This document shows positions 1,656 to 38,502 of a DNA stretch of 64,000 nt, in pieces. The notes beneath the pieces are model-generated. The model did no database searches. It worked only from the letters and a program-made list of their open reading frames with translations, and had not been told where the DNA came from. Positions within the stretch are counted from its first letter, which is position 1, and every line of letters starts with the position of its first letter. Both the position numbers and the translations under genes were made by a program. The stretch covers positions 6,084 to 70,083 of the forward strand of contig DSBK01000103.1 of NCBI GenBank assembly GCA_011046085.1, read 5' to 3'. The stretch comes from Actinomycetota bacterium (GTDB taxonomy: Bacteria; Actinomycetota; Aquicultoria; UBA3085; Oleimmundimicrobiaceae).

Positions 1656-1702
1656 GCATATCAAAGAATGTAATGGTAAAATTCAATTAGGAGGTGGGAT
1701 TA

Positions 1703-1936: not shown

Positions 1937-1972
1937 TTACATATTACTCAATTAATACCTTAAAAACACGGG

Positions 1973-3438: not shown

Positions 3439-5041
3439 GACTTCCCCTCATTTTGCCCAGTTTTAAAACCCACTCGTTCACAAGATTGAACTCCAAACCT
3501 TCGTCGCTTACAATTGGCTCACCTTCAACCCCAATAACCTGTTTAAGCATTGGTTTCATGGTTTCCAAAATCGTGTCATAGAATTTATCTTGTTTTGTCT
3601 TTTCATACCATTTTATGCCCAGATATTTTTCTATGAGTCTAAGATCATCCTCCACAAGCGAGATAACTTGAGGCGGCAAAAACTCCGCGGCATTGGCAAG
3701 ATGAACGAACCTACAGGCAAATGCGAGGCTGCTCTTAAGACCAACATAACACTCAAGAAACTGATTTAAAATCTTCTTTCCATAACGCTTTTCAACCTCA
3801 TTTAATCCCCTGCCAACTCCGATAATTTCGGGGGGAAGTCCGATACTATACAGGGCCGCTGTGTAAGATATCGCTCTGGGCAATTCACCACCACCCTTCT
3901 TGTATGACTTTCTTACCTCATCCGCAAGAGTTTTGTCTGTTAAAAGATCGGCCAGCTCAAGGGGATGCGGGAAATCTCTAGCGTAACCAACATCGCTTTT
4001 TCTCGCCAACCGGTCCCTCTGCCCTGGTATCAAATCAGATATTCTACAAACAACATCGCTTACATCATAAAAGCAGGTTAAGTAATGCTTTACAAAGATG
4101 CCAATTATATTTATCAAAGTTGAGCGGAAATCATCATCAAAATCCAAGGGGCGTGAGGAGGGGAGCCTCTCTTTAAGGATTTCTGCCAATTTTCTCGTTT
4201 TATCGTAGCCGTGGTCGTATCTCATGGCAGACTGAATGGTTAGTGTGCGAACTCCACGATAGTCCTCCATGACATTATCTATGTTTTCCAAAGTAAAATA
4301 ACCTCTAAACGGAAGCGTTCCACCTCCTAAAATAGGAGCCATCTCAACCCCAAGCTCTTTTTGCAAGCGATAACCATCCGCAATCGCGATTTTATTTGAG
4401 AGAGCGGCGGCCACCATCCCGTAGGTAAGAGCAAGATCGGAAAGACCCAGCATGAAGCGTAACCTCTCGGTTTTTAACCCTTTCTCTCTGCAACCGTTCA
4501 AATAATCCTTAAAAATGGTGTAAACATCCAATATTTGAGGTATGGTTTCTATGAGCGGAATCACCTTTATAAGGTTGCGATCCTTACTCAGCCCGAATTC
4601 TTTATGGGCAAGCTCGATAACGTCGATGACTCTCTCTCGCACAGCAAGAATCTCCTCAGACCCCCTGCACATCGGCAAGATAATCTCTTTAATCGCATAG
4701 ATATTAGACTGCTTCCAGGCATGATAATTTGATTCGACGACGGACATTAAAGCCATTAATTGTCGAAAAACTCCCTCTTCCACGCCACTTGGAATCCGCG
4801 GAGTTACAAAGACTTCTTTCCCGGGCAAAATCCCCTTTCCGATCAGCCCTAAAACAATCTGAGATGTCTGTTGGTAAGGAGTCAGTTTCCCTTCAAAATC
4901 GACCATCGCCTCTTCAAGCCCCAGACCATCCGGTGCCGGAGTGAGAGAAAAGATGGCTTCCTTTGGTTCTTCTTGAATGGATATATAGGTTGAAGCATCG
5001 GGATGTTGGGTCATCATAGATGTTGGCGTTTTATCCTTCAT
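3431..5041 (-). CDS. ppcA: Archaeal-type phosphoenolpyruvate carboxylase (PepcA)
   Basis: The N-terminal MMTQHPD motif is the hallmark (IPRxMSTQHPDN) of archaeal-type PEPC; the roughly 535 aa size fits. Confidence 0.85.
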   Translation of the reverse strand: MKDKTPTSMMTQHPDASTYISIQEEPKEAIFSLTPAPDGLGLEEAMVDFEGKLTPYQQTSQIVLGLIGKGILPGKEVFVTPRIPSGVEEGVFRQLMALMSVVESNYHAWKQSNIYAIKEIILPMCRGSEEILAVRERVIDVIELAHKEFGLSKDRNLIKVIPLIETIPQILDVYTIFKDYLNGCREKGLKTERLRFMLGLSDLALTYGMVAAALSNKIAIADGYRLQKELGVEMAPILGGGTLPFRGYFTLENIDNVMEDYRGVRTLTIQSAMRYDHGYDKTRKLAEILKERLPSSRPLDFDDDFRSTLINIIGIFVKHYLTCFYDVSDVVCRISDLIPGQRDRLARKSDVGYARDFPHPLELADLLTDKTLADEVRKSYKKGGGELPRAISYTAALYSIGLPPEIIGVGRGLNEVEKRYGKKILNQFLECYVGLKSSLAFACRFVHLANAAEFLPPQVISLVEDDLRLIEKYLGIKWYEKTKQDKFYDTILETMKPMLKQVIGVEGEPIVSDEGLEFNLVNEWVLKLGKMRGSLG

Positions 5042-5230
5042 TGCTCTTCCTTTCTTAATCGCCTGTTGGATAAATATATTTCAATTCTTGGCATTTTAAT
5101 CAAATTAATTTGGCGCCATTATCACGTTATTTAATAAAATTATATCCTTTATCTAGATATATTGTAATATTCACCCCAGTCATGAACACAATTTTCTGAG
5201 AAAATTAAAATTTAATCTCCTCCTTTAACT

Positions 5231-5259
5231 TTGACTATTCTCAAATAAAGTATTATATT
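5231..5259 (+). promoter_or_regulatory. Sigma-70-like promoter for the Zn-ribbon-Hfq gene
   Basis: TTGACT (5231-5236), a 17 nt spacer, then TATATT (5254-5259); an AAAAGGTGG RBS precedes the ATG at 5290. Confidence 0.4.
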
Positions 5260-5289
5260 AAAAAATAATCAATTAAAAGGTGGCGCGCA

Positions 5290-5889
5290 ATGAAGGAAGG
5301 CAAATGCAGTATTTGTAACAAAAAGACAGAAAAGCTCTGGGTTTTAAATACAGCCATCTATGATGACCTGGATCTATCTGAACAAGGCGTGCGAGCAGAT
5401 ATCTGCGAACGATGCGCTACGGATGTGAGTGAAGTGGTCAATTACTTGAAAAAAACAAGCAAAATGCCCGCCCCGACTCAAACTAAAAGACCTGTAGAAA
5501 TCAAAAGCCAGTATAAATCGGCAGAACCTACAAAACAGGAAAATAAAGAACCTGTGGTAAAAAAAGAGAAGGAAAAACCTGAAAGTGAGTTTAAGAAATA
5601 TGATCCCAGACCCCAGTTAAGTAGAGGATTTGCCCAAAATGCCTTCCTTAAGGAACTTCATCACAACAAAGAGAAGATCGAGATACTAGGAATGGACAAT
5701 GAGGTTTGGAAAGGAAAAATTGAAGCTTACGATGAATTTTCTTTGGTTATTAGGACAAAATATGGTAAAGAGCTGGTTTTTAAACATGCGATAAAATCCA
5801 TCAAGCCCGCCTGCGAAGAGAAGGAAGTAGAAGTTTTTAAAAAGCTGGATGATTCCGTCCGCTCAGTTCCACCCGTGTTGCCTCACTAA
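5290..5889 (+). CDS. Zinc-ribbon / Lys-Glu-rich linker / Hfq (Sm-fold) domain fusion protein
   Basis: The N-terminus has CSICNKK...CERC (a C4 zinc ribbon). The C-terminus, NAFLKELHHNKEKIEILGMDNEVWKGKIEAYDEFSLVIRTKYGKELVFKHAIKSIKP, aligns with the E. coli Hfq core [56 protein letters not shown], covering Sm1, Sm2 and the YKHAI motif. Confidence 0.7.
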   Translation: MKEGKCSICNKKTEKLWVLNTAIYDDLDLSEQGVRADICERCATDVSEVVNYLKKTSKMPAPTQTKRPVEIKSQYKSAEPTKQENKEPVVKKEKEKPESEFKKYDPRPQLSRGFAQNAFLKELHHNKEKIEILGMDNEVWKGKIEAYDEFSLVIRTKYGKELVFKHAIKSIKPACEEKEVEVFKKLDDSVRSVPPVLPH

Positions 5890-6392
5890 ATCTTAACTAT
5901 CTTTCCAGATATCGAACCACAATTTTTATCTGTCGACTCGTCAATGTCAAGAAACCCAAGTGAGTTTTGGCCGGTAAATGCCCTATCCATAGCACTACCG
6001 GGATTAAACAATAAAACATTGTCAATTACCTGATTGTAAAATGAGTGGCTATGACCAAAAACTATGCAATCAACGTCGCTAAACTCTCTCCTTACCCTTT
6101 GCGGAAGATCAACAGGGGAACCCCAACCGTGCATCATGCCAATTTTACATCCACCGACTTCAACAACGATTTTTTCCGGTAAAACCTTCTTGGTATCGGG
6201 AAAATCCATATTTCCTCTTACGGCAACCGTTTTGGCCACATCTTTTAAGACCTCGAGGACACGCAAATCCACCATATCGCCAGAATGAAGGATAATATTT
6301 ATCTCTTTGAAGTGGCAATGGACAATTTCTGTTAAGCGATCGAGGTCTTCTTCCGTTTTAACGTGAGTATCCGAAATTACACCTATTCTCAA
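5886..6392 (-). CDS. YfcE/MJ0936-family metallophosphoesterase
   Basis: [16 protein letters not shown] and GHSHSF motifs; overlaps lon by 4 nt, so likely co-transcribed. Confidence 0.75.
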   Translation of the reverse strand: MRIGVISDTHVKTEEDLDRLTEIVHCHFKEINIILHSGDMVDLRVLEVLKDVAKTVAVRGNMDFPDTKKVLPEKIVVEVGGCKIGMMHGWGSPVDLPQRVRREFSDVDCIVFGHSHSFYNQVIDNVLLFNPGSAMDRAFTGQNSLGFLDIDESTDKNCGSISGKIVKI

Positions 6393-8767
6393 CTTTTGCC
6401 CTTTTTATTGGATTTAAGCTTTGGTCGTTCCTTTAGCGCGACCTTGAGAACATCGACCACATTTTTGACAAATATAAATGCTAACTCCTTGCGCACTTGC
6501 TCCGGCACTATATCCAAATCCTTCTCATTTTCTTTGGGAACGATTATCTTTTTCAAACCAGCCCTATGAGCGGCGAGAACTTTCTCTTTTATGCCCCCGA
6601 CCGGTAGAATATGCCCTCGAAGAGTAATTTCGCCAGTCATGCCGACATCTTTTTTGACGGGAGCCTTGGTTAGCGCCGATATCAGAGAAACTGCCATGGT
6701 AATCCCCGCAGACGGACCATCTTTTGGTATCGCTCCAGCGGGAACATGGATATGAATATCGTATTTATCATAAAAATTTTCAGGCGCTCCGAACTCTTTC
6801 GCTTTGGAGCGCGCATAACTCAGCGCCGCCTGTGCGGACTCCTGCATGACCTCACCCAGGTGACCCGTGAGGGTAAGTTTTCCGTTTCCCTTCATAAGCG
6901 TAGACTCAACAGATATGATATCCCCGCCGGCCTCCGTCCAAGCCAGCCCGGTGGCCACCCCAATCTCATCTCTTTCTTCAGCCAAACCATAATGAAATTG
7001 TGAGGGGCCAAGGAAATCGGTTAAATTATCCGGTATTATTTTAAAAAGTTTCTTTTCTCCCTCAACAATTTTCCTTGCAATTTGACGACAAACGGCGGCT
7101 ATTTTTCTCTCTAGATTTCTTACGCCGGCCTCCCTTGTGTGCTCCCTTATTATTTCTACCACTGCTTCCTCGGTAATTTCTAGGTCCTTTTCTTTAAGAC
7201 CATGGGCTTCAAGTTGTTTTGGTATCAAAAACTGTTGGGCGATTTTTAATTTCTCCTCTTCCGTATACCCCGGAAAGTGAATAACCTCCATCCTGTCTTT
7301 AAGGGCCGGTGGTATAGTGTCTAATATATTCGCGGTAGTTATGAACATGACATCGGAAAGATCAAAGGGGACCTCAAGGTAGTGATCGCTAAAAGCGCCA
7401 TTTTGTTCGGGATCAAGCACCTCAAGAAGGGCGGCCGTTGGATCCCCCCTAAAATCGGCTCCGACTTTGTCTATTTCGTCCATCATAAAAACGGGATTGC
7501 TGGTACCAATCTGCTTTATACTCTGAATTATCCTGCCCGGCAAAGCGCCAACATACGTCCGTCTGTGTCCCCTGATTTCAGCTTCATCTCGAACACCGCC
7601 GAGAGACACTCTGATAAACCTTCGCCCAAGCGCCCTTGCAATCGATTTGCCAATGGAAGTTTTGCCGGTTCCAGGCGGCCCAACAAAACAAAGTATGGCT
7701 TCCCTCATTTTTTCTTTTGCCAACTTTCGAACCGCCAAGTGTTCCAACACACGTTCTTTTACTTTTTCGAGGCCATAGTGATCTTCATCAAGAATCTCAC
7801 TTGCTTTTTCAATATTTAATTTCTCTCTCGATTTTTTGGCCCAAGGCAAGTCAATTAACCAATCGAGATAGGTTCTCACAACAGAGGCCTCGGCCGCAGC
7901 AAGCGGCATCTTTTCAAGCCGACCGATTTCCTTAAGGGCTTTCTCTTCCACTTCTTTTGGTATTTTCGTTTTAGCAATCTTGTCTCTTAATTCTTGAGTT
8001 TCCGCAACCCGCTCATCCTCTATCCCCAACTCCTCTTGGATCGCCCTCAACTGTTCTTTTAGGAAATATTCTCTTTGGGATTTTGTCATCTGCTCCTTTA
8101 CCCTGTTTTGAATTTTGCTACCCAGCTCTAAAATTTCGAGCTCTTTGGATAAAAAGGAGGAGACTTTCTGTAATCTTTCTTTTGGGCCTATGGCCTCCAA
8201 TATCTCTTGTTTGCCATCGGTCTTCAAATTTAAATGAAAGGCCACAAAGTCAGCCAACCTACCCGGTTCGTCGATGTTTAAAGATGCTACCAAAACTTCA
8301 GGGGGGATCGGCCTACCCAACCTAGCGCATTTTTCAAATTGAGAGATAAGGTTCCTCATTAAAGCTTCCGTCTCTAAGTCTTTTTTAGCTTCTTGCTCAA
8401 CAACCTCAATCTCCACCTTAAAATAGGGGTCAACCTGAATAAATTTTTTAATCTTTATACGAGACATCCCCTCTACCAGAGCCTTAGCAGTACCATCGGG
8501 AAGTTTCAATTCCTGCATTACCAAAGCAACCGAACCTACTTCATAAAGATCCTCCGGAAGCGGGTCCTGAACCTCAACATCTTTTTGAACGGCCAAAGCC
8601 ACCATATGGTCTTCGTGCATCGCCGCTTCCAAGGCGTTTATGGATCTTTCCCGTCCCACAAAAAGAGGTACCACAAGATTGGGAAAGATTATTAAATCTC
8701 TCAAAGGAATCAGCGGCAGCTCGTTTGGGATTTTCAAATCAGCTTCGTTATGATTTTTTGCTGTCAT
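6389..8767 (-). CDS. lon: ATP-dependent Lon protease
   Basis: Lon N-terminal domain, Walker [10 protein letters not shown], and the proteolytic Ser motif [20 protein letters not shown]. Confidence 0.95.
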
Positions 8768-8894
8768 TAAAGTCGTCCTTCCTATTTAATTATTTTATTT
8801 AATATGTAAACATATTCTTTAGATTCAATCATAATCCTTCCACAAATTAAGTAAGGTGATTACATAAAAAAGAAGGAACTAAAAAGGAAGCGCA

Positions 8895-10895
8895 ATGAAA
8901 AGATACACCTTTTTTTTAATGATGACAACCTCTCTCTTTTTCACATTTGCATGCATTTCTTGGGCCGCAAATGAAGCTCAGCTGGGACTCGTCTTCGATA
9001 AACCATTTTATGAACCCAACCAGAGCTTTTCCTTATCGGTTACAATTAAAAACCTTTCAAAAAATAAACTCAGTAACACCAAGGCAATTTTAACAATTGA
9101 GAATCCCGAAAACGGAGAGAAAATTTACGAACGAAAATTTTATCCCGGTAGCATTTTCTCTGAAAAGACCAAGAAATTTAGCCTAAAAAAGGATGTCTCC
9201 AATTTAAACTTATCAGAAGGAGTTTATCCCGTTCAGTTAAGATTTATAAAAGAAAACGAAGTCCTTGTGGAAAAACAAACATTCCTCACCATTTTAGATG
9301 AAGTAAAAATGCCATTGGCCGTGGCGCTCATCTGGAACCTCCATGAAACCGCACACTTTAATCCGCAGGGCATATTCCTGGATAACGAGCTCCAGGTCGC
9401 CTGCGACAAGAAAGGTGTGTGTCAGAAACATTTGGAAGCATTAAACGCACACCCAGCGGTAAATGTTTCGATGAACATAACCCCGCTCTTTGTGGAACAG
9501 CTTCGAGATATAAGTGACGGTTACAAAATTCTTGCCAAAGGAAAAATTAAGAACATAGGGGAGAACTCAAAAGAGGCCCAACGCGCAACCAAAATCCTGG
9601 AAGGATTTGAGAGGGCGATTAAAAATAAGCAGTTGGAACTCATGCCCGCTCCCTATTCCTACCCTCTCTTAAACGAGCTTACAAACGAAGAGTGGGGAGC
9701 AGACGATGCCGACCTTCAGGTGGCTTTAGGCAAGGAAGTAATCATGAAAACATTCCACTTATCTGAAGAACCAAAAGGAATGTTCAGCCCAAATCTAACA
9801 TCAAATTTGAACTCATTGTCGTGTTTAAGAAGCGAAGATATTGAATATACCGTATTAAATAGCAATCTTTTCGGTCCCACCGTAGGTAAATCCGAGGGAT
9901 TAGAAACAAAAGATATCTTCAAGCCATATAGGGTTCAAAACATAAAGGGAGATAGGGTATCCGTTTTATTCGCGGACGAAGAAATCTCAAACTCATTCGT
10001 AAAAAAGGAAGACCCTCACGAAGCGGTACAGCTTTTGGCCGGACAGCTCGCCCAAATTTACTTAAAAGAGCCCTACAAGCAAAAAATCGTGGTGATAGTC
10101 CCCGACAGCCCGGGTTGGCAACCGTCAACGGAACTCCTCGAAAACATCTATCTCTTCCTCGAGGGACCCTGGTTAAACCCAGTAACATTGGATATCGCAT
10201 TTGAGCTGGGTCAAACTCCCAGTCAGCCAATCGAGCTTCTCGAACCAAGAAGAGAAAAGAGCTACCTTCAAGTAAAATACGACGAAAACATAGGGCTTGC
10301 CCACACCGAATTGTCCAATTTCGGGAAAGTGGTTGAAGACGACAATCCCCTATTGAATAAATTGCACAAACAAATTCTCATAGCCGAAGCAAATGATTGG
10401 AGACTATCTGAAAACCCCGTGGTTGCAAACCGAGGTTTGGCTTTTTTAACAAACGTAATTGAAACCATAGACTCCGAACTGGATAAAGTATTCATCGAGC
10501 CCAAGGCGAGATTAAAAAACAATGAGGCACAAATCATCGTGCGCAACCGCTCTGATTATGACTTTAATGTATTTGTAAATCTAAATTCCGGGACAGGAAA
10601 AAGGGTAATTTTAAAGCCAGAGAAAAACCTAGTTAATCTCCCGCTTGATAATCAAAAAAGCTATGCCTATCGGCAGGCAGGCGGACAAAAAATTAAAGTT
10701 TTTATCAATAATGGCGATAAAAATATAAAAGAGGCAAGTGTAACGCTTTTTGGGGAGCAATCTTCCAAGAAAACTTGGTATGTGGCCTTAATTGGAAGCT
10801 TTGCTCTAATAATCCTTACAAGCGCAGCCATAATCTGGTTTTTCAATAGAAGAAAGGTGAAAAATCATGAGAGAACTGCTCGGAAGCGCCCTTAA
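8895..10895 (+). CDS. Exported protein with signal peptide and C-terminal TM anchor; function unknown (possible Ig-like N-terminal domain plus carbohydrate-active-like core)
   Basis: N-terminal signal peptide (MKRYTFFLMMTTSLFFTFACISWAA) and a C-terminal hydrophobic helix followed by RRKVKNHERTARKRP; the central ALIWNLHETAHFNP resembles the N-terminal motif of GH57/polysaccharide-deacetylase-like folds, but this is weak. Confidence 0.45.
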   Translation: MKRYTFFLMMTTSLFFTFACISWAANEAQLGLVFDKPFYEPNQSFSLSVTIKNLSKNKLSNTKAILTIENPENGEKIYERKFYPGSIFSEKTKKFSLKKDVSNLNLSEGVYPVQLRFIKENEVLVEKQTFLTILDEVKMPLAVALIWNLHETAHFNPQGIFLDNELQVACDKKGVCQKHLEALNAHPAVNVSMNITPLFVEQLRDISDGYKILAKGKIKNIGENSKEAQRATKILEGFERAIKNKQLELMPAPYSYPLLNELTNEEWGADDADLQVALGKEVIMKTFHLSEEPKGMFSPNLTSNLNSLSCLRSEDIEYTVLNSNLFGPTVGKSEGLETKDIFKPYRVQNIKGDRVSVLFADEEISNSFVKKEDPHEAVQLLAGQLAQIYLKEPYKQKIVVIVPDSPGWQPSTELLENIYLFLEGPWLNPVTLDIAFELGQTPSQPIELLEPRREKSYLQVKYDENIGLAHTELSNFGKVVEDDNPLLNKLHKQILIAEANDWRLSENPVVANRGLAFLTNVIETIDSELDKVFIEPKARLKNNEAQIIVRNRSDYDFNVFVNLNSGTGKRVILKPEKNLVNLPLDNQKSYAYRQAGGQKIKVFINNGDKNIKEASVTLFGEQSSKKTWYVALIGSFALIILTSAAIIWFFNRRKVKNHERTARKRP

Positions 10896-11232
10896 AATAA
10901 TTCTAATCGTCGTGATCGCATTCGTCATCATGAATGACGTCGGCATAGTCATAACAAGCTACTGGCATAGCTCAAGAACAGCAGCTGATATCGCGAATGC
11001 GGCGGCGATCAACTACAAGCTAACCGGCTCAGCTGAACAAGCTCAAGCGACAGCCAAAGACTGGGCCGATCAAAAGGGGGTTGAGATAACCGATTTAAAA
11101 GTAGAAGAAGGCACTTTGACAGCATCTATTAAAATACCGTCAAAAAGAACTTACATAATTCGCCACATTAAATTCCTGGAAAATATTCTCCCCACAAAAA
11201 AAACCGTAAGCATCGATATCCCAACCTCATAA
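10867..11232 (+). CDS. Small membrane-anchored hypothetical protein
   Basis: One N-terminal TM helix; overlaps the upstream gene by 29 nt; no recognisable domain. Confidence 0.4.
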   Translation: MRELLGSALKIILIVVIAFVIMNDVGIVITSYWHSSRTAADIANAAAINYKLTGSAEQAQATAKDWADQKGVEITDLKVEEGTLTASIKIPSKRTYIIRHIKFLENILPTKKTVSIDIPTS

Positions 11233-11325
11233 AAATTTCAAATTTAAAAAAGGAGTTTTTCTTCCTTTCTGCAAATAATAAATGTAAGTACACAATTAGA
11301 TATAAGGTTACGCGGAGGGGCGCCA

Positions 11326-12540
11326 ATGAAAGACTTAAACAAAAATTTAAATCCATCTGACCATTTTATTATTTCTTTTGAAAATGAAGTTCTCACCAAA
11401 TGTATCGGCTGCGCCAAGTGCTTGAAAGAATGCGAGATTATCAAGTTCAGCAAATTCGCCAATGCCGATTTAAGGGAACTGCAAAAAAAGCGGCTCGATT
11501 TTCTAATAAGCGGGACTTTGTCGAACGATGTGTACGAGAGCGCTTATCTTTGCATGCATTGCCATTCGTGCGAAATTTCCTGCCCCGTTGACCTAAACAC
11601 ATCTGCCATAAATGAACTAATCAAAGCCAGGCTAAAGGAGCGCGGAAAAGCCGCTCCGTTTGCCTTAAAGCTTTCAGTTCCCACAGACAAGTTAAATGCC
11701 TTCGGAATTCTTTCAAAAGTAATGTTCAATAAGAATGAAATGATCTGGCTAAACGAAGTCCCCGACGTTGATGTGGCCGTTTTTTTGGGATGCCTCTACC
11801 CGATAGTTGCAGATAAGGTCCTGGCCTCTTTTGATATTTTAGATGAATTAGGGGTAAAATTTGCCGCCCTTTCCGGTGGCGCCAATTATTGCTGTGGAGC
11901 TCTCGACTCGATGTCCGGAAACGCAAAAGAGGCAAGAGAAAGAGCTATAAATCTCGCCATGGCCCTCGACAAGCTCTCGCCACGAGGGACCATCCTTTGG
12001 TGCTCCACATGTTATCAACGATTAACCGAAATCAGCAAAGAAGAAAATTTGCCTTTCAAATGTCAGCACATAATCCCGTTTCTAAGAGATAATTTGGAGA
12101 GAATCAACTTTAAAAAGACGATAGATAAGAAGATTACCATCCATGATCCATGTCATCTGGGCAGAGGAGCCGGCAAATACGATAGCATTCGCGAGCTGCT
12201 TGGAGCAATCCCAGGCGTTGAAATCGTTGAGATGAAACACACAAAAGAAAAGGCGCTTTGTTGCGGTGGAGCCGCTTTATTCTCTAAGCCACGCGTCGCA
12301 AAAAATATGACGAAACAACGAATGGTGGAGGCGCAAAACACCGGAGCCGACATTCTCGCAAGCATGTGCGCGGGGTGTCACATGGCCTTCTGCGAAACCG
12401 AAGATAAATATTCGTTTGAAGTCCAAAATGTAATCGGGGTTCTCGCTGAGGCAATGGGGATAGAGTATGAAGATAGACTGAAGAACCATTCGGGCATCTT
12501 AAAAAGAGCTATGGGGATGCTTAGAACCTTCTGCCGTTAG
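11326..12540 (+). CDS. HdrD/GlpC-like iron-sulfur oxidoreductase (2x[4Fe-4S] ferredoxin plus two CCG domains)
   Basis: CIGCAKCLKECEI and CMHCHSCEISCPV ferredoxin motifs, then two cysteine-rich CCG domains (GCLYP...CCG...; CHLGRG...CCGG). Confidence 0.75.
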   Translation: MKDLNKNLNPSDHFIISFENEVLTKCIGCAKCLKECEIIKFSKFANADLRELQKKRLDFLISGTLSNDVYESAYLCMHCHSCEISCPVDLNTSAINELIKARLKERGKAAPFALKLSVPTDKLNAFGILSKVMFNKNEMIWLNEVPDVDVAVFLGCLYPIVADKVLASFDILDELGVKFAALSGGANYCCGALDSMSGNAKEARERAINLAMALDKLSPRGTILWCSTCYQRLTEISKEENLPFKCQHIIPFLRDNLERINFKKTIDKKITIHDPCHLGRGAGKYDSIRELLGAIPGVEIVEMKHTKEKALCCGGAALFSKPRVAKNMTKQRMVEAQNTGADILASMCAGCHMAFCETEDKYSFEVQNVIGVLAEAMGIEYEDRLKNHSGILKRAMGMLRTFCR

Positions 12541-13065: not shown

Positions 13066-13403
13066 GAGAGAACATAATAAAAACGGATATAGGAGGAAAA
13101 GTGGAGGAAAAGAAAAAGATAACCGAGGAGCCGAAACTTGAGGATATCATCGCTGAGTTGAAAGTGATGGGGGCTCAATTGAAGGATGCGTTTAAGACAA
13201 CGGTTGAGAGCGAAAAAGCAAAAAAAATGAGAGCACAGGTTGCGGATGGCTTCGATAGCTTAACCGATGCCTTCGATAAGTTCATAAAAGATGCAAAGAG
13301 CGGCCAGCTTGAAAAGGACATAAAGAAAGGCCTCCGCGACAGCATAAAGGTCATAAACGAGAAGCTTAAACAATATTCTGAGGCAAGAAAGGAAGAAGAA
13401 TAA
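13062..13403 (+). CDS. Lys/Glu-rich predicted coiled-coil protein
   Basis: Low-complexity charged sequence; 4 nt overlap with the upstream gene. Confidence 0.35.
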   Translation: MRENIIKTDIGGKVEEKKKITEEPKLEDIIAELKVMGAQLKDAFKTTVESEKAKKMRAQVADGFDSLTDAFDKFIKDAKSGQLEKDIKKGLRDSIKVINEKLKQYSEARKEEE

Positions 13404-13500
13404 AAATTTTCTTTTGCAAGCTAAACGGCTAAAAATTTCACCTAACGGAACGAGAACAAAAGAAGTTTATGGAGCGTAGTGGAGAAAATATAGAAAAGTC

Positions 13501-15409: not shown

Positions 15410-18097
15410 TTACGCTCTCTCAACTCGCACTGCGCACACTTTAAGCTCGGGTATCTTCGATACCGGGTCGAGCGCAGAGTTGGTAAGCATATTTACCGGA
15501 GCTTCTTTGAAATGGAAGGGCACAAACACGGTTCCTTTTGGAACACGCGGAGCAACACATGCTTTAATTTCAACTTTCCCTCGCCGTGAGATGAGTTCGA
15601 CCCAATCATCGTCTTTTATATTAAGCTTTTTAGCATCTTCGGGGTTTATCTCAACCCTGGCCTCCCTGCAGACCTCGTCGAGCCCCATTGAATGTCTGGT
15701 CATCGTGCCAGTGTGATAGTGATACAAGAGTCTTCCAGTAGTTAAAACGAATGGATACTCTTTGTCCGTTTCCTCCGCAGGCGGCTTGTATTCAACCGCG
15801 TGAAATTTGCCCAACCCTCTTGTAAATTTCTCGGCGTGAAGAATTGGCGTTCCTGGATGCGTTGCGTCTGGGCATGGCCATTGAACGCTTTCTTTGCTCA
15901 CCCTCTCAAATGTTATTCCTCCATATGTGGGAGTGATGCTCGCAATCTCATTGGTAATTTCACCGACCGTCTCGTAATTCATCTCATAACCCATGACCTT
16001 CGCCAAATCGGAGATTATTAACCAATCGGGCCTGGAATTGCCAACTGGCGCAATGGCTCTTCTTACTATCTGAACTCTTCTTTCAGTATTGGTAAATGTT
16101 CCGTCTTTTTCAGCAAAAGAGACACCGGGTAGAACAACATCGGCAAGCTCAGCGGTCTCGGTTAAAAATATATCCTGAACGACTAAGAAATCCAACTTTT
16201 CAAAGGCTTCTTTCACGTGATTTAAATCGGGATCTGAGAGCATGGGGTTTTCGCCCATAATATACATGGCTTTGACCTCGCCACGCAAAACGGCATCCGT
16301 CATCTCGGTAACACTTAAACCGCCTTTTTCTGGAAGTTTCGCTCCCCAAATATCTTTGCACTTCTCAATAATCCCCAAATCGCAGACATTTTGATAACCG
16401 CTTACGCAACCGGGAAGCGCGCCCATATCACAGGCACCCTGAACGTTGTTCTGTCCCCTCAGCGGATTAACGCCCGCTCCAGGCCTTCCGATGTTTCCGG
16501 TAAGCATTGCCAGATTAGCAATGGAGAGAACGTTGTTCGTGCCCGTGGTGTGCTGGGTTATTCCCATACAGTAAAAGATTGCCCCGTTTTTAGCCGCAGC
16601 AAAGAGCCGCGCCGCCTTCCTTAAAGAATCGGCCGGTATGCCCGAAACATTCTCAACTTTCTCAGGCGTATATTTAATAACTGTTTTCTTTAATTCTTCA
16701 TAATCTTCCGTTCGTTTATTGATAAAGTCCTTATCTTCCAAGCCCTCCTCAATTATCACGTTCATGAGCCCGTTTAAAACAGCGACATCTGTTCCTGGTT
16801 TTTGAGAGAGCCACATATCGGTGTATTCTGTTAGCCGAATTTTTCGAGGATCAATTACAATTAATTTCGCTTTAAAATCATATACCGCTCTCTTCATCTC
16901 AAGAGCAACTATCGGATGATTTTCGGTGGTATTTGATCCGATAACGAGCATTACATCAGCTTTAACTATGTCATCAAGGGAGTTTGTCATCGCTCCGCTT
17001 CCAAACGCTTTGACCAGACCGGCCACAGTTGGAGCGTGTCACAAACGGGCACAATGGTCGATATTGTTTGTGCCAATCACCGCCCTCATAAATTTCTGCA
17101 TCAAATAATTTTCTTCATTGGTGCACTTTGCCGAGGAAAGACCCGCAATTGCATCTGAGCCATGTTTCTTTTTTATCTTTGAAAACTTGTCTGCAACGGT
17201 TTTAATTGCCTCATCCCACGAAGTCTCAACAAGCTCCCCGTTTTTTCGAACCAAGGGCGAGGTGAGTCTGTTGGGGTGATTTACGAAATCATAACCAAAC
17301 CTACCCTTTGCACAAGCATTTCCTTTATTGATACCACTCTCAACATCGGTTGAAACACGAACAATTTCGCCGTTTTTAATTTGGATTTCTAGCTCACAGC
17401 CACATCCGCAATAAGGACAGATGGTCTTCACTTTTTCTATTTCCCAGATTCTTCCCTTATATCTGCTCATCTTTTCAGTTAAAGCTCCTGTGGGGCAGGT
17501 GGATACACACTGCCCGCAAAGCTCGCACTTGGTTTCGATGAGCGACCTGTCATAAGGAGTTGTAACTATGGCATCGAAACCTCGGTTAGCAAAGGTATAG
17601 ATGCTGTTTTGCTGAACCTCCTCACAGATACGAACGCAACGGCCACAACTTATACATTTATTTAAGTCCCTTTCAATCAAAGGATTGTAATCTTCGATGG
17701 TATAGGTATGTTTTTCCCCTTCAAAACGGTTCTCTTCTATCCCCAGTTCATAAGCTAAATCTTGAAGTTGGCACTGCCCCGCGCTCTCACAGGTCACACA
17801 GCTTAACTCATGATCGGAAAGCAGTAATTCAACAATGGTTCTTCTGATTTCATAAAGCGGAACCGTATTGGTCTTTACAACCATGCCATCGATGACTTCG
17901 GTCGCACAGGCTGGCAGAAAAGTTCTTGCTCCTTCAACTTCAACGAGGCAAACTCGACAGGCTCCATACGGTTTAAGCCGCGGGTCATGGCAGAGCGTTG
18001 GAATTTTTATCCTATTTTCGCCGGCTACCTCAAGTATGGTTTTGCCGGGTTCGGTTTCAATTTTTCTATCATTTATGACCAAGTTAATCTTCGCCAT
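15410..18097 (-). CDS. fdhA: Selenocysteine-containing formate dehydrogenase catalytic subunit (FdhA; N-terminal 2Fe-2S/4Fe-4S domains plus Mo-bisPGD domain), one gene with an in-frame UGA at 17039-17041
   Basis: ORFs 17039-18097 and 15410-17026 are in the same frame. Reading through the TGA gives ...NNIDHCARL-U-HAPTVAGLVKAF..., the canonical Sec motif of FdhF/FdhA (E. coli ...RVUHGPSVAGL). The C-terminal part carries the molybdopterin dinucleotide-binding domain. Confidence 0.85.
16986..17038 (-). promoter_or_regulatory. SECIS-like hairpin immediately 3' of the fdhA UGA
   Basis: mRNA: UGA CACGCUCC AACUGUGGCC GGUCU GGUCAAAGCGUUUGGAAGCGGAGCG. The lower stem is CGCUCC/GGAGCG and the upper stem is GGCC/GGUC with a GGUCU apical loop, closely resembling the E. 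coli fdhF SECIS (UGCA-GGUCU-GCA) at the same distance from the UGA. Confidence 0.55.
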
Positions 18098-20376: not shown

Positions 20377-21156
20377 CTAATCCAGATAAGAATGACAATA
20401 AAGAACCTCGTTCCTCAATATCCTAACCGTCTTTACTGTATCCATTAACTCTTTGTCAAAAGGATCGGCAATCGCGGCATCTAAGCCAACGGTTGCAAGC
20501 ATAGTAAGATATGTCCTATCCAAAAGAGGTTTAGTTTCAGCAAGAGCGCCATTTGATATATTGCTTAGACCCACAACCGTCTTAAGCGGAGGATCGTTTA
20601 GCTGCCTGAACATTTTTATTGCCTCGATACCCTCCAAAGCTTGCTCTTGTGAAACAGCTATGGGAAGAATCAATGGATCAAGGTAAAGATTTTCCAAAGG
20701 CACACCCTTCTCCGCCATTTTGGTCATAATATCAACGGCTATCGCCATCCTTCCGTTGGCATCGCGAGGAATACCCGTTGCAGGCATAGTCAAACCAATA
20801 AGTTTAGCATCGTATTTTGCGGCTAAGCTGGTCATCGTTTCGAGCCGAGTTGGCTCGCCCGAAGCAGAATTTATGATCGGTTGCTTCTTACAAACTTTTA
20901 GTCCCGCTTCCATAGCTTCCGCATTGGTGGTATCTAAACAAAGGGTTACATCAACCGCATCTTGCACGGTGTTTACAACCCACTCCATCATCTCCGGTCC
21001 ATCTTTTCGAGCCGGTCCAATGTTTATATCCAAAGCATTGGCACCGGCCTCAACCTGAGCTGCCGCCATATCTTGAATCGGCTTCGGATCCCGATTCTTC
21101 ATAGCAGGACCTATGGTCAGCGACATAACATTAACTTTTTCTCCAATTATTAACAT
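20377..21156 (-). CDS. acsE: Methyltetrahydrofolate:corrinoid/iron-sulfur protein methyltransferase (AcsE, pterin-binding domain)
   Basis: MLIIGEKVNVMS...ALDINIGPA; the roughly 259 aa pterin-binding TIM barrel is typical of AcsE. Confidence 0.75.
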   Translation of the reverse strand: MLIIGEKVNVMSLTIGPAMKNRDPKPIQDMAAAQVEAGANALDINIGPARKDGPEMMEWVVNTVQDAVDVTLCLDTTNAEAMEAGLKVCKKQPIINSASGEPTRLETMTSLAAKYDAKLIGLTMPATGIPRDANGRMAIAVDIMTKMAEKGVPLENLYLDPLILPIAVSQEQALEGIEAIKMFRQLNDPPLKTVVGLSNISNGALAETKPLLDRTYLTMLATVGLDAAIADPFDKELMDTVKTVRILRNEVLYCHSYLD

Positions 21157-22599: not shown

Positions 22600-22885
22600 T
22601 TAATAATAGTCGATGGCCCAAAACTCTCTGCTCCATTAGTCGATAGTCTCTTAGTGGGGAGTCGGCAGTAAGTTCAATTGAGAATTAAAAACGAAAAAAT
22701 TTAAAATCTTTAAAGACATTCTTAATTTTTAATTACCGCCCGCACTGGGGTGGGTCGTTTTTATTTTTTTCGTAAGACCAGCATCTGGCATTCTCCATTC
22801 TCCATTTGTCTTCTAACTTTCCCCTTTCCCCTTCACCCTCTACCCTTATTTTGCCTTCTGCCATCTGCCATCAGCTATATGCAAT
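22600..22885. repeat. Intergenic repeat element, copy 2 (full length, about 250 bp)
   Basis: ...attagtcgatagtctcttagtggggagtcggcag...AT-rich linker...cccctttccccttcaccctctacccttattttgccttctgccatctgccatcagctatatgcaattag; near-collinear with copy 4 (31555-31790). Confidence 0.7.
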
Positions 22886-23943
22886 TAGCCAAAATATTTG
22901 TCTCTCAAAACGGAGGAAAGCTCAGCCGTTAATTTTATGCTTTTTTCCGCCAAATCCACCGCCATTGAACCCGTGCCACAATTTGGCGTGATTAAGCTCG
23001 CCTCAAGGAGTTTCATCTTATCAGCACCCTTGTCGACCAATAATTGAACTTTTTCTTCAAACCTTTTAAGTAAATCTTCCAGGGTCTCACCCGATATCGC
23101 ATCTGGACTCGGATAGGTGGATGGGACTATCCCCCAGGCGAGCACCCCTCCTCTATCCAAAAAATTATTGAGTTCTTTTGGATATAAGGCCATGCTTTCA
23201 GTGTGGTCATACGCATCGAAGCTTATGATGTCAACGGCAGTTTCCATTAAGATGCTCCAGTCAGTGCGACCACAGCAATGAACCCCGCAAAGGCTGTCCA
23301 CCGCATAAAAACACTCATTTAAATAGGATATAACCTCGTCTTTATTGAGTTTTATGTAAGCCGAGCCGTAAGACTGAAGATAGGGCTCGTCAAAGAAAAC
23401 AACCGTTTTTACATCGGGAGATAATTTCTTAAATTGTCTTAATTGCCACTTAGCCTTCATGATAAGCGTCTTTATGATGGCATCTCTTAAAAGATCATTG
23501 TAAAGAACCGCTTGTTTGTTTTGATCGGTTACGGTCAAACCAAAGCTAATTGGCCCTATCATCTGGCCTTTTAACATAACCAAATCAGCCGGCATGCTCT
23601 TTTCCAAGATGCTCATCATAGCATGGAACCCACGCGCGTAATCTTCGGATATCTTGAAATAATCTAAATCTTCGGCCAAAAATCTATCATAAAACCTCTC
23701 AAGCTCCCATGCCAAATTTCCCCGGGCCTCGAGATGAATCCTTTTCTTTTCCTCATCTATCCTTATCGCCGGCATGCCCTCTGAAATTTGAATGAACATG
23801 CTCTCTTTGAAAGAAACGTTAGGAAGTTGGGGCCATATCGGTATCTGGGGAGTATGCTTCAAAACCACCTCACACGCTTTATCTGCGTCTATGTGCGGCA
23901 TACTTCCAATGGTTGTCGGAAGACAGCATGGCTTAAATTCCAT
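22885..23943 (-). CDS. Short MetE-like (cobalamin-independent methionine synthase C-terminal fold) methyltransferase
   Basis: CCLPTTIGSMPH matches the MetE C-domain motif LPTTTIGSFPQ; the roughly 350 aa UroD/MetE-fold size is typical of methylcorrinoid-dependent methyltransferases. Confidence 0.65.
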   Translation of the reverse strand: MEFKPCCLPTTIGSMPHIDADKACEVVLKHTPQIPIWPQLPNVSFKESMFIQISEGMPAIRIDEEKKRIHLEARGNLAWELERFYDRFLAEDLDYFKISEDYARGFHAMMSILEKSMPADLVMLKGQMIGPISFGLTVTDQNKQAVLYNDLLRDAIIKTLIMKAKWQLRQFKKLSPDVKTVVFFDEPYLQSYGSAYIKLNKDEVISYLNECFYAVDSLCGVHCCGRTDWSILMETAVDIISFDAYDHTESMALYPKELNNFLDRGGVLAWGIVPSTYPSPDAISGETLEDLLKRFEEKVQLLVDKGADKMKLLEASLITPNCGTGSMAVDLAEKSIKLTAELSSVLRDKYFG

Positions 23944-27064: not shown

Positions 27065-27480
27065 CCGACTTTCCTCCCCACATTGGGTCCTAACTTTTTT
27101 AAGTTTTCATAAAAAACGCGGAGCAACTGTGCAAATTTAATCCCGTTGGAGGGAGCCAAATAATACATCTGCACCCTCTCCTCTTCGACACCAATCTCCT
27201 TTAAAATTTCCTTAATGCTAGACACCCTCGCCTCAGCCCTTAAGTTCCCTCTCAAAAACTGGCAAGCTTCCTTATGGCAAGCAAAAACAGCAACACCATC
27301 ACCTTCTTCTAGCGCCTTCATGATGTGAATGGCCTCGATCTTTCCTGAACACGGCACCCTTATCATTTGTACGTCGTTCGAGAAAACAAACCGGGACTCG
27401 ACCGCCATGTTGGCAGAGAGTAAACCGGAGTGCTCACAACAGAAAGCGGTTATTTTTGGCTCAAAATCTCCCTTCATCAA
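27061..27480 (-). CDS. mvhD: MvhD/FlpD-like [2Fe-2S] protein
   Basis: FCCEHSG...RVPCSGKI...VFACHKEAC. Confidence 0.8.
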   Translation of the reverse strand: MMKGDFEPKITAFCCEHSGLLSANMAVESRFVFSNDVQMIRVPCSGKIEAIHIMKALEEGDGVAVFACHKEACQFLRGNLRAEARVSSIKEILKEIGVEEERVQMYYLAPSNGIKFAQLLRVFYENLKKLGPNVGRKVG

Positions 27481-29105
27481 CCCACTTCACCTGCCATACT
27501 ATTAACCAACTGCCCCATGACCTTCGCGTTAGTATAAAGCGGAAGCTCTATCGCCATAACAGGACACTCGCTTGCACATATCCCACACGATTGACAGGAT
27601 ATTGGTATCACTTTTGCCGTCTCTTCTTTTTGATCAACAACTATCGCCCCATGAGGACATGTTCTAACACATGTAAGACACAGAACGCATCTGTCCGAAT
27701 TTATCTTTGCAGACGTTAAATCCAGCTCAATTTCTCCCTTTGAAAGAAATGAGAGAATCTCTTGTGCCGTGGCCCTCGCCTCGGTAAGTGTCTCGTTTAT
27801 ATTCTGTGGCAACCGGCATCCGCCAACAAAAAAAACCCCTCGTTTAGATGATTTGGTCGGCAAAATCTTGACGTTGTCCTCTTGGAAAAACCCGTTTGAA
27901 TCGAGGTTTACCGAGAGTAACTTGGCCAGCTCTTCAAAGCCTTTGCGGGGTGCCGCTTTCTCGCCCACAACTAATAAATCGGCCTCGAAAACCATTTCTT
28001 CGTGGGGATAATCTTCGTTTATCAGAGAAACTTCAACAACGTTATTTAAAACCTTGATTCCCGGTTTTTCGACGTATTTAAAGAACAACACACCGGCTTC
28101 ACGAGCTCTCTTATATAATTCTTCACCACCATCGAACGAAACCTTCAAATCCTTACACAAACAAATCACATCGGAGTCAAATTCTTTCTTTACAGCCAAC
28201 GCCTGTCTCAAAAGCGCTTGTGTCTGCACTTTTAAATCCTCATCGACCAAATCAGTTAAGAAACATATCCGCCCGGGTACATCGTTTGAAGATAACCTCT
28301 TCTCAAAATCTCTTTGTCCAATAACTCTTGAATTGAAATTTTCGCCGAGCTCCTCAATGGGCACTATGGACTCATAACCCACCGCAACAACAATTGCGCC
28401 GACTTCAAGAACCGACTCATCTTTCCCCTCAATTTTTACGATAAATCCTCCAGCATGACCCCCCGTGTTGGCCAAACGTGAAGAGCTAATGATCTTTATT
28501 TTTTCTTCTTTTTTGAGCGCTCTAATCTTATCGCCCAAAAAATCTTGCAAGCCCTCAATCGCAGCAATTTCTCCACCGAGATCCTGACCCCCTTCTACCA
28601 AAACCACATCTAAACCGCCTCCGGCCAGAGTAAGCGCTGTCTCAATTCCAGCAATTCCACCCCCCAAAACAAGAACTTTTCGATTTAACAAAATTTTCTG
28701 AGTCTCGATTGGTCCCTGATTTTCAATCCATCTCGCGGCACGAACTATAAGTTGAACAGCCCTATCAAGAATTTTTACCTTCTTGCCACATATAACAATA
28801 GCTTCACCAAGATTTATAAAAGCCAGCGCGTAAGGATTTAGGCCAGCCTTCTTGAAAGAATTCTTAAAAATTTTCTCATTTGATCTCGACGAATAACCGG
28901 CAATAACAGCGGCAGATAATTTGTTTTTTTTCACAAACTCTTCAAAATCATCTCTGAGCCCTTCATCGCGCACAGAGGAGCTTACAGTGGACGCGAAATG
29001 AAGTCCGCTCAACTTTGAACATATAGCTTCAACGCTCAAAAACTTCCCCAGGTTACCCTCAGGATCATATATAAATATTCCTATTTTGGAAATTTTATCT
29101 TTCAT
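27477..29105 (-). CDS. HdrA-like FAD-dependent oxidoreductase with C-terminal 2x[4Fe-4S] ferredoxin domain
   Basis: VLVLGGGIAGIETAL Rossmann motif; C-terminal CVLCLTCVRTCPHGAI and CQSCGICASECP. Confidence 0.75.
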   Translation of the reverse strand: MKDKISKIGIFIYDPEGNLGKFLSVEAICSKLSGLHFASTVSSSVRDEGLRDDFEEFVKKNKLSAAVIAGYSSRSNEKIFKNSFKKAGLNPYALAFINLGEAIVICGKKVKILDRAVQLIVRAARWIENQGPIETQKILLNRKVLVLGGGIAGIETALTLAGGGLDVVLVEGGQDLGGEIAAIEGLQDFLGDKIRALKKEEKIKIISSSRLANTGGHAGGFIVKIEGKDESVLEVGAIVVAVGYESIVPIEELGENFNSRVIGQRDFEKRLSSNDVPGRICFLTDLVDEDLKVQTQALLRQALAVKKEFDSDVICLCKDLKVSFDGGEELYKRAREAGVLFFKYVEKPGIKVLNNVVEVSLINEDYPHEEMVFEADLLVVGEKAAPRKGFEELAKLLSVNLDSNGFFQEDNVKILPTKSSKRGVFFVGGCRLPQNINETLTEARATAQEILSFLSKGEIELDLTSAKINSDRCVLCLTCVRTCPHGAIVVDQKEETAKVIPISCQSCGICASECPVMAIELPLYTNAKVMGQLVNSMAGEVG

Positions 29106-30163
29106 TACTTCCTCAACATCTTTCCGACTTCCGCCGCCGCCGCTTTACCGTGAGCCATAGATTCTTCGATACTTTTCGGCCCTTGACACGCCCCAGCAAG
29201 AAAGATGCCAGGGTTGCTTGAACAATTTAAAAGTTCTCCTTTGGCCCTATAAAAACCGTGCCCATCTTGGTCAATCCCTAAAGTATCAGCCAAAAATTTT
29301 GCGTCGTTTTGAGGTGACAACCCAACGGATAAAACGATGAGATCGAACTCATCTAAAATAACCTCTCCCGTATCGGCATTTATACTCTTAACTTGCAAAA
29401 AATCGGAATTAACATAACCATAAACTTTCGACGGCAAATTCCTCACAAAACGTATCCCAAGCCCCTCACAACTCTTGCGAAGTTCATAAAAACCCTTGCC
29501 AGCGGGCTGAACATCCATGTAAAAAATAGTAATATCCGATTCGGGGGTCTCCGACTTAATAAGTTTTGAAAGCCGCAACGCGTACGGGCAACACACTTTT
29601 GAACAATAACCCTTGCCTATGCTCTCGTCTCTGCTTCCAACACACTGAAAGAAAGCAATTTTCTTTGGCGTTGAGCCATCCGTGGGTTTTGCAATTTTTC
29701 CAGTTAGACGCAGGGACCGTTCAAGGTCCAATGCCGTGATGACATTTTTGTACTTTTTGTATCCGTACTCTTTTTTTGCCTCCGCATCGAAAGGCATGAA
29801 GCCCGTTGCAACCACCATGGCTCCAACTTTCAACTCCACTTCTTCAAAGAGAGATTCCTCTTTTGCCGCTCGAGAAATTTGCAGCCTAAAATTATCGGGC
29901 TTGCCTGAAAAAGACATCACCTCAGAACCGGTTAAAATTCTTATCTCCGGATACTGAAAAACTTTTAAGATAAGTTCATCGGCAACGCATGCCGAGCACT
30001 TGTTGCACTTCTCCGTGGCCTTGCAAGCAAACCCAGCCGCATGCCCCCCGGTTTGAGTATCTCTTTCAATAATGTAAACCAGAGAACCCATATCAGCCAG
30101 GGCTATGGCCGCGCTTATGCCGGCTATACCGCCACCGATAACGGCAACGTTTCGTGAGCTCAT
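29105..30163 (-). CDS. HdrA core (thioredoxin-reductase-like FAD domain) paralog
   Basis: VAVIGGGIAGISAA, FQCVGSRD and CSKVCC are HdrA signature motifs. It is a separate gene, not a Sec split: the TAATG stop/start overlap with the downstream ORF was verified. Confidence 0.7.
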   Translation of the reverse strand: MSSRNVAVIGGGIAGISAAIALADMGSLVYIIERDTQTGGHAAGFACKATEKCNKCSACVADELILKVFQYPEIRILTGSEVMSFSGKPDNFRLQISRAAKEESLFEEVELKVGAMVVATGFMPFDAEAKKEYGYKKYKNVITALDLERSLRLTGKIAKPTDGSTPKKIAFFQCVGSRDESIGKGYCSKVCCPYALRLSKLIKSETPESDITIFYMDVQPAGKGFYELRKSCEGLGIRFVRNLPSKVYGYVNSDFLQVKSINADTGEVILDEFDLIVLSVGLSPQNDAKFLADTLGIDQDGHGFYRAKGELLNCSSNPGIFLAGACQGPKSIEESMAHGKAAAAEVGKMLRK

Positions 30164-38485: not shown

Positions 38486-38502
38486 TTTCTTTCCTCCTTT
38501 AA

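Follow-up and report, generated by a model that had tools for sequence, protein, structure and literature searches.

The 64,000-nucleotide stretch analyzed here (hereafter the window) is part of an actinobacterial metagenome-assembled genome (MAG) and carries on its minus strand a gene, fdhA, whose reading frame contains an in-frame TGA. Judging from sequence comparison, fdhA very probably encodes a selenocysteine (Sec)-decoded, molybdenum- or tungsten-dependent (Mo/W) formate dehydrogenase/CO2 reductase, which would form the A subunit of a Type 1 Fdh-Bfu complex. The TGA occupies the codon of the metal ligand and is followed by a hairpin, whose covariation and conservation among orthologs are confined to TGA-bearing genes and absent from those with a cysteine (Cys) codon. 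Further, selA, selB, and a gene for tRNA(Sec) are located approximately 15 kb from fdhA.

The fdhA reading frame and its product

A list of open reading frames (ORFs) contains two entries, 17039..18097(-) and 15410..17026(-), which share one frame. An earlier note on this DNA had taken them for a single gene interrupted only by TGA and had read the active-site motif CARL-U-HAPTVAGL across the interruption. Both claims were confirmed by translation of 15410-18097(-), whose 896 codons include a single internal stop. This codon (353; TGA at 17041-17039) is preceded by NNIDHCARL and followed by HAPTVAGLVKAFGSG, thus reading HCARL-U-HAPTVAGL, and falls into an alignment column of Sec or Cys. GGAGG is present upstream of the ATG at 18097. 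The alternative of two separate genes was rejected. The gap between the listed ORFs is an artifact caused by the ORF lister, which restarts at the next GTG (17026).

In a six-frame scan of the window, four pairs of long ORFs were found to be joined by one TGA, but only the fdhA pair resembles a split gene; the remaining three are located opposite real genes. TGA terminates 13 of the 54 other genes of the window, none of which has an in-frame TGA, and the genetic code is therefore standard. Since the identical TGA-ended N-terminal product is present on four contigs (JGI, ENA, and Logan collections), the TGA is not an assembly error.

The protein was assigned using profile searches, for which Sec was written as Cys. 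FdhA matched NCBIfam TIGR01591 (Fdh-alpha) with 915.1 bits (cut-off 666.25) over profile positions 1-672 of 672, in agreement with the earlier proposal of a Sec formate dehydrogenase of the FdhF/FdhA type. The Pfam domains found were Fer2_4, NADH-G_4Fe-4S_3, Fer4, Molybdop_Fe4S4 (residues 221-274), Molybdopterin (277-701), and Molydop_binding, i.e., a NuoG-like N-terminal part with 2Fe-2S and 4Fe-4S clusters followed by molybdo/tungstopterin catalytic domains. When FdhA was aligned with 15 homologs, the ligand position 353 (Sec/Cys), His354, and Arg547 were invariant. The best match among well-described solved structures is R. capsulatus FdsA (6tg9_A, 784 bits, full length); PDB entry 9wxb_B scored 791 bits. 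Based on these sequence comparisons, we conclude that the product is the alpha subunit of a Sec-type formate dehydrogenase, with predicted catalytic activity.

The full-length database homologs closest to FdhA (71% identity) are of the Cys type, and a search with the read-through protein returned full-length Cys-type proteins only, since the protein database has Sec-type genes in divided form. For fdhA itself, gene callers yield a 352-aa 'YjgC-like oxidoreductase' and a fragment of approximately 526 aa. A search with the N-terminal fragment retrieved hundreds of comparable fragments of about 352 residues from the public protein collection.

The components needed for Sec decoding were searched as well. 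The first 293 nt of the window, minus strand, had been assigned to the N-terminus of SelA, and this fragment indeed continues to a protein of 470 aa on two metagenome contigs (L001 and L002), which are 100% identical to window positions 1-11655 and extend beyond the window start. The same contigs encode SelB, a protein of 637 aa that has the two winged-helix domains specific to SelB, as well as tRNA-SeC(tca). ARAGORN found no tRNA-Sec inside the window, the gene being located just past the window start on the identical contigs.

The hairpin downstream of the UGA codon

A hairpin with a GGUCU loop had been predicted 3' of the UGA at the spacing of the Sec insertion sequence (SECIS) of E. coli fdhF. 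RNA folding near the UGA recovered it as UGGCC-GGUCU-GGUCA, 16 nt past the UGA. Numbered from the U of UGA, the outer pairs C14-G34 and U15-A33 are followed by a G16/A32 mismatch and the core of five pairs (U17-A31, G18-C30, G19-U29, C20-G28, C21-G27), which is capped by the apical loop G22-G23-U24-C25-U26. The SECIS of E. coli fdhF has G23 and U24 as essential loop bases and an 11-nt spacer ahead of the stem-loop (PMC8659212); G23 and U24 of the window are in the same register, after the same 11-nt spacer. General definitions place bacterial SECIS elements within the ORF, immediately 3' of the in-frame UGA, and the conserved G of their loop some 20 nt after it (PMC4605307, PMC8659212); the window hairpin agrees with this in position and loop. 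Rfam SECIS_3 (RF01989) aligned at 16986-17044(-) over 59 of 59 model positions (45.8 bits, E 1.3e-9).

In order to compare Sec-type and Cys-type genes, 80 orthologous genome loci were collected. The aligned codon 353 was readable in 79 loci, of which 52 have TGA and 27 have Cys (TGT/TGC). GGUCU was found at the Gly-Leu codons 18 nt past the TGA in 49 of 51 Sec-type genes vs. 8 of 23 Cys-type genes (Fisher p = 2.8e-8). The 6-bp helix flanking the loop is paired in about 100% of cases in Sec-type genes (0 of 500 shuffles matched the observed pairing), with compensatory changes in two pairs (GC/CG/UA/AU and CG/AU), whereas in Cys-type genes 60% of helix cells are paired, which is indistinguishable from shuffles. 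On average, the apical hairpin has an energy of −11.6 kcal/mol in the Sec type and −3.8 kcal/mol in the Cys type. Six to seven contiguous pairs are formed in 49 of the 52 Sec-type orthologs, whose hairpin has the form GUNGCC-GGUCU-GGCNAC, which we take to be the SECIS sequence of Moorella thermoacetica also. The hairpin family is Rfam SECIS_3. The difference between the two gene types cleanly illustrates selection on RNA structure within a coding region. A covariance model (R1) built on the 52 Sec-type ortholog sites, with the window left out, gave 60.2 bits for the window and 66-76 bits for three held-out Sec-type relatives.

Besides the Sec-type sites, three Cys-type orthologs (L052:3678-3736, L109 at 2398-2445, and L024:7147-7205) have a near-complete SECIS-like hairpin with 59-60 bits on the Sec-type model, and these are probably recent Sec-to-Cys replacements. 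In the Dehalococcoidia locus L054, a second site at 13352-13410(-), 6 kb from a Cys-type fdhA, reaches 60 bits on the SECIS model and may mark a Sec-type paralog.

A metagenome collection was also searched for DNA encoding HCARL-[U/C]-HAPTVAGLVK, i.e., the peptide of the window itself. Among the 26 sequences obtained, 24 have a Cys codon and two a TGA (L090 and L111). In the Cys forms, the synonymous sites of the hairpin vary freely, whereas both TGA forms keep the exact hairpin core of the window, GUGGCCGGUCUGGUCAAAGC (core 20-mer identical), between flanks with many synonymous changes. The same 18-mer occurs in one of the 24 Cys forms (L109); thus, the exact core is present in 3 of 3 TGA forms, counting the window, vs. 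1 of 24 Cys forms (p = 0.0014). Exact retention of such a weak hairpin in two diverged TGA-bearing relatives argues that it works. L111 is an ortholog with 80.6% nucleotide and 86.6% amino acid identity to the window fdhA and has the same NuoF-CBS-FdhA context. Its sole internal stop is the TGA at codon 353, and its identity to the window gene is 85% after the UGA vs. 88% before. Around its SECIS, 2 of 17 codons differ synonymously, compared to 44% gene-wide (p = 0.005). That TGA and hairpin were kept through this divergence, with the downstream half intact and constrained, is to be expected from Sec decoding, but not from a pseudogene. The closest relative of the N-terminal half, L086 (26-994; P0122; 87% amino acid identity), ends with TAA at codon 323, upstream of the Sec codon, which is either a sequencing error or a mark of a real pseudogene; this 1-kb contig with 2.4x coverage is uninformative on the Sec site.

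Several observations weigh against a working SECIS and Sec decoding in the window. The stem has five contiguous pairs, one of them G-U, or seven if the G/A mismatch is tolerated, compared to 6-8 bp in typical bacterial SECIS elements (PMC4605307). Pair 19:35, which is formed in 52 of 52 other Sec-type orthologs, is a G/A mismatch in the window, and with −6.5 kcal/mol the hairpin is weaker than those of 51 of these 52. The folding energy of the single sequence is not significant (z = −0.77; range −0.8 to 0). The SECIS_3 score stays below the Rfam gathering score of 63, and therefore the default Rfam search at the gathering threshold came back empty; the SECIS_3 match emerged only when the local region was searched by E-value. 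The R1 score is level with the best Cys-type sites (59.9). Part of the conservation around the SECIS stems from the conserved peptide, and the ortholog counts on which the contrast of Sec and Cys types is based are not phylogenetically independent. Finally, the earlier note had proposed a search for selB, selC, and selD and had regarded their absence as refuting; this refutation mostly failed, with selB and the tRNA-Sec gene, together with selA, located beyond the window start as described, but selD was not found in the 64-kb window, the 9.5 kb upstream, and the approximately 4 kb downstream. The weak stem is explained by the peptide, which is GLVK in the window compared to GLA(A/T) in most Sec-type relatives; relatives sharing GLVK are mostly of the Cys type. 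Comparative evidence, not folding energy, lifts the hairpin above chance.

Two described elements are instructive in this respect. FdhA of Moorella thermoacetica is also a Sec-type enzyme, of an acetogen and at the methyl branch, and its SECIS likewise follows the UGA directly and offers a GGUCU-type loop to the SelB winged-helix domains; this hairpin has been crystallized with SelB (PDB 1WSU/2UWM, cited in PMC4605307). Unlike there, the window stem is shortened to the five pairs given above, in line with GLVK instead of GLA(A/T). The E. coli fdhF product (FdhH) likewise has Sec as metal ligand and His as the next residue, and its element shares the distance of 11 nt and the loop bases G23/U24. 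However, U17 is bulged in E. coli and paired in the window, where the G/A mismatch lies one step lower. FdhH also lacks the NuoG-like N-terminal part, its match covering residues 221-893, the C-terminal two thirds, and has a role in formate-hydrogen lyase. A BLASTN search against E. coli genomes detected no similarity to fdhF at the DNA level.

Partner subunits and alternative readings

The earlier note had placed fdhA next to genes for NuoE- and NuoF-like subunits, which was verified by Pfam and NCBIfam matches (Table 1). The NuoF-like protein is composed of an N-terminal 2Fe-2S domain, a flavin mononucleotide (FMN)/NAD(P)H site, SLBB, the NuoF 4Fe-4S domain, and two C-terminal 4Fe-4S clusters (Pfam PF01512, PF10531, PF10589, and twice PF00037). 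Its best solved match is the B subunit of the Acetomicrobium mobile NiFe-Bfu enzyme (7t2r_B, 891 bits; other bifurcating B subunits, 735-824 bits), and the B subunits of solved Bfu-family enzymes matched over the full length with 735-891 bits (including hydrogenases 7t2r, 7q4v, 8a6t, 7p5h; Stn 8oh5; NfnABC 9n5u). The motifs GAFMD, GAGAFVCGEE, and GGPSG (the latter at residues 404-408) align in five solved B subunits of the family (7t2r, 7q4v, 8oh5, 9n5u, 9bov). Marks of bifurcating B subunits are an A..M NADH site, a Phe near FMN, GGPSG in SLBB, and extra Fe-S clusters (Losey et al., 2020; PMC7311640). Positions 232, 234, and 367 of the T. maritima protein would fall on the motifs of the window protein.

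According to the definition of the Bfu family, BfuB has an FMN-binding 51-kDa domain, SLBB, NuoF 4Fe-4S, and ferredoxin-type 4Fe-4S domains, BfuC a NuoE-type 2Fe-2S domain, and BfuA 2Fe-2S and 4Fe-4S ferredoxin domains (Schut et al., 2022; PMC9304861). These domains were found in the NuoF-like protein (B), the NuoE-like protein (C; PF01257), and FdhA (A; Fer2_4 and Fer4), respectively. The InterPro domains of the definition were equated with Pfam entries, which presumably correspond to them. In Type 1 Fdh-Bfu enzymes, exemplified by Carboxydothermus hydrogenoformans, the pterin site is part of the A subunit itself and BfuB belongs to clade 49, which also holds the A. mobile NiFe enzyme (PMC9304861).

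The window genes resemble this type in having three subunits, with A being a NuoG-like Fe-S part fused to a pterin catalytic domain, B carrying FMN and extra clusters and having its nearest solved relative in clade 49 (7t2r_B), and C being NuoE-like. They differ by a gene for a CBS-pair protein between the B and A genes and by acsE between the C and B genes. In addition, the host is an actinobacterial MAG and not a member of the Firmicutes, and membership of the window B subunit in clade 49 is putative. FdhF2-HylABC of Gottschalkia (Clostridium) acidurici, a characterized bifurcating W/Se formate dehydrogenase, likewise joins a selenium-containing formate dehydrogenase to a BfuBC-type core reducing NAD+ and ferredoxin (PMC9304861). 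Its pterin subunit is separate and its A subunit non-catalytic (Type 3), whereas both are fused in the window (Type 1).

Since the NuoF-like subunit bears every published mark of a bifurcating BfuB, ferredoxin is implied as a second partner, and the complex is more likely coupled to NAD(P) and ferredoxin, as a Type 1 Fdh-Bfu enzyme, than simply NAD(P)-linked. On the other hand, Type 1 Fdh-Bfu enzymes have never been characterized biochemically (PMC9304861), and it is the homology of the B subunit from which the ferredoxin coupling would follow. With a ribosome at UGA353, the hairpin starting 11-13 nt downstream would offer its GGUCU loop to SelB/Sec-tRNA(Sec), Sec would be inserted at position 353, and the 542 further codons would be translated. 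Together with the products of the upstream nuoF-like (B) and nuoE-like (C) genes, FdhA would then assemble into a soluble three-subunit complex. By means of flavin-based electron bifurcation/confurcation, this complex most likely links CO2/formate to NAD(P)(H) as well as to ferredoxin, and it may supply formate to the formyl-tetrahydrofolate synthetase (Fhs) of the same Wood-Ljungdahl cluster. The sequence data show the frame, the protein family, the hairpin confined to TGA-bearing orthologs, the sel genes, and the domains of the partner subunits; from these we infer that Sec is in fact inserted, which metal is bound, that ferredoxin is coupled, and in which direction catalysis proceeds.

The alternatives differ considerably in probability. 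The earlier note had described a soluble NAD(P)-linked enzyme; the NuoE/NuoF-like partners on which this was based hold, but 'NAD(P)-linked' is probably incomplete, given the BfuB marks. It therefore appears unlikely to us that the complex is a simple soluble formate dehydrogenase using NAD(P)+ without ferredoxin, like R. capsulatus FdsGBA or the Moorella NADP enzyme. FdhA does have its closest well-described solved relative over the whole length in FdsA, and NuoE/NuoF-like partners occur in FdsGBA (6TG9/6TGA) too. However, the window B subunit, with its 735-891 bits to bifurcating B subunits, reaches 406 bits to the non-bifurcating FdsB (6tg9_B), in a match of residues 26-529 leaving the C-terminal part uncovered, and it carries GAFMD, GAGAFVCGEE, and GGPSG as marks of bifurcating enzymes (PMC7311640). 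FdsGBA is further a Cys enzyme, non-bifurcating and without extra clusters in B, and non-bifurcating homologs in general lack the N-terminal 2Fe-2S and the two C-terminal 4Fe-4S clusters that are present in the window protein (PMC9304861). With the Moorella NADP enzyme, Sec, methyl branch, and SECIS loop are shared, as described above. The Moorella thermoacetica enzyme is an NADP-dependent alpha2-beta2 protein, and its partner subunits are unlike those of the window.

Much less probable than a ferredoxin-independent enzyme is that the TGA is a nonsense mutation, leaving a recent pseudogene or a 352-residue iron-sulfur fragment as the only product. This assumption would fit a hairpin that ranks among the weakest Sec-type elements and scores about as high as the best Cys-type sites, the missing selD in the window and some 14 kb of flanks, and the use of Cys in the closest full-length homologs. 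Yet the stop is located exactly at the catalytic Sec/Cys codon, at which most of the readable orthologs have TGA as well, and all codons downstream of it are open. An ortholog as diverged as L111 retains both TGA and hairpin, and its C-terminal part is intact and conserved to an equal degree; a truncated product would break off partway through the Molybdopterin domain; and intact selA, selB, and selC adjoin the window start. The chance that TGA encodes a standard amino acid in a reassigned code (Trp or Gly), or arose by faulty assembly, is negligible. Nothing speaks for it beyond the in-frame TGA itself, while the regular use of TGA as a terminator without any other in-frame occurrence contradicts the former and the four contigs with the same TGA-ended product the latter. 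A Sec-decoded A subunit of a Type 1 Fdh-Bfu complex remains the best supported reading.

Gene neighborhood and implications

Table 1. Features of the fdhA region and the window start, in window coordinates.
Feature	Position	Strand	Evidence or remark
selA, first 97 codons	3..293	-	TIGR00474 selA, E 9e-17
fdhA	15410..18097	-	ATG at 18097, stop 15412-15410; 895 residues
SECIS region	16986..17044	-	Rfam SECIS_3 (RF01989) and model R1 matches
SECIS hairpin proper	17008..17028	-	apical loop 17020-17016
UGA codon 353, predicted selenocysteine (Mo/W ligand position; His354 next)	17039..17041	-	TGA in 52/79 orthologous loci
CBS-pair protein, 142 aa	18109..18537	-	two CBS domains, E 2e-29
NuoF-like flavoprotein, BfuB type, 605 aa	18559..20376	-	Pfam; B-subunit matches
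acsE (methyl-tetrahydrofolate:corrinoid/iron-sulfur protein methyltransferase)	20377..21156	-	NF005719 273 bits, cut-off 259
NuoE-like 2Fe-2S protein, BfuC type, 171 aa	21172..21687	-	PF01257 E 8e-52; NuoE NF005722 156 bits, cut-off 141

fdhA is the last gene of a long Wood-Ljungdahl cluster on the minus strand, with its first gene near 47.7 kb and its end at 15.4 kb. The cluster starts with fhs, the corrinoid activase gene RACo, cooC, folD, acsD, and a second NuoE/NuoF/FdhA-like module, continues with acsA, acsB, acsC, HdrA-like genes, mvhD, metV, metF, hdrC, and hdrB, and ends with an unknown 352-aa gene, cooC, the nuoE-like gene, acsE, the nuoF-like gene, the CBS-pair gene, and fdhA. The order NuoE-NuoF-FdhA is common and widespread among the orthologs. 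The position of the CBS-pair gene between the nuoF-like gene and fdhA is kept in L083, L084, and L111, for which 72% identity of the protein was noted, and the gene is absent from more distant loci. Its product is possibly a regulatory or nucleotide-sensing accessory subunit. The acsE gene lies between the nuoE-like and nuoF-like genes in the window genome only, and outside this pair in L083, L084, L085, and L003; its product is not a dehydrogenase subunit.

The second module (35939-41466(-)), directly upstream of acsA, encodes a NuoE-like protein of 171 aa, a NuoF-like protein of 645 aa with GGPSG, an Fe-S protein of 173 aa, and an FdhA-like protein of 849 aa. The latter (35939-38485) is 38% identical to FdhA, has Leu for Sec and Gly for His, and has lost the active-site Arg; it is therefore predicted to be a non-catalytic scaffold of the BfuA type. 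The module is perhaps a transhydrogenase- or carbon monoxide dehydrogenase-linked Bfu complex. Within the cluster, an HdrA-like flavoprotein (27477-30163(-)) is divided into two ORFs of 352 and 542 aa in different frames with a 1-base overlap, and at the corresponding place L085 has a single protein of 1017 aa. For the 352-aa ORF at 22885-23943(-), between hdrB and cooC, L084 and L003 have homologs that likewise lie in this Wood-Ljungdahl context. Sequence searches with it in Pfam, NCBIfam, and PDB returned no match, and its AlphaFold single-sequence model (pLDDT 34) was unusable.

Some observations concern genes outside the cluster. The 592-aa protein encoded at 51791-53569(-) combines 4Fe-4S domains, the C-terminal domain of the [FeFe]-hydrogenase large subunit, and a GGDEF diguanylate cyclase domain, and looks like a hydrogenase-like sensor with cyclic di-GMP output. 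The 199-aa protein encoded at 5290-5889(+) carries a long N-terminal extension, its Hfq domain being confined to residues 116-174. An NCBI protein from an 'Actinomycetota bacterium' MAG matches the Lon protease of the window with 100% identity, and the next relatives of this protease are from other Actinomycetota MAGs, including Candidatus Aquicultor. Deep-branching Actinomycetota classes with a Wood-Ljungdahl pathway are known from metagenomes.

A Sec-type FdhA, a SECIS at the orthologous position, a selAB-selC locus, and Bfu-type partners are all of known kinds. The departures are small: a short-stem SECIS below the Rfam threshold, though conserved within its small clade, the CBS-pair gene in the operon, and acsE between nuoE and nuoF. 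It is conceivable, although we regard it as rather doubtful, that the lineage uses a minimal SECIS with a 5-bp stem, seen in three diverged GLVK genes, and does so in an uncharacterized Type 1 bifurcating CO2 reductase with a lineage-specific CBS subunit, which might gate the enzyme by adenylate or energy status.

The main value of the finding is in annotation, as the split call of fdhA is repaired. With the gene divided by gene callers, a metabolic reconstruction of the MAG would miss or mislabel the CO2-reducing step. With the repaired gene, the methyl branch of this uncultivated actinobacterial lineage would begin with a selenium-dependent and probably ferredoxin-coupled CO2 reductase. This bears on the energetics assumed for acetogenesis in the lineage, and implies that its cultivation would need selenium.

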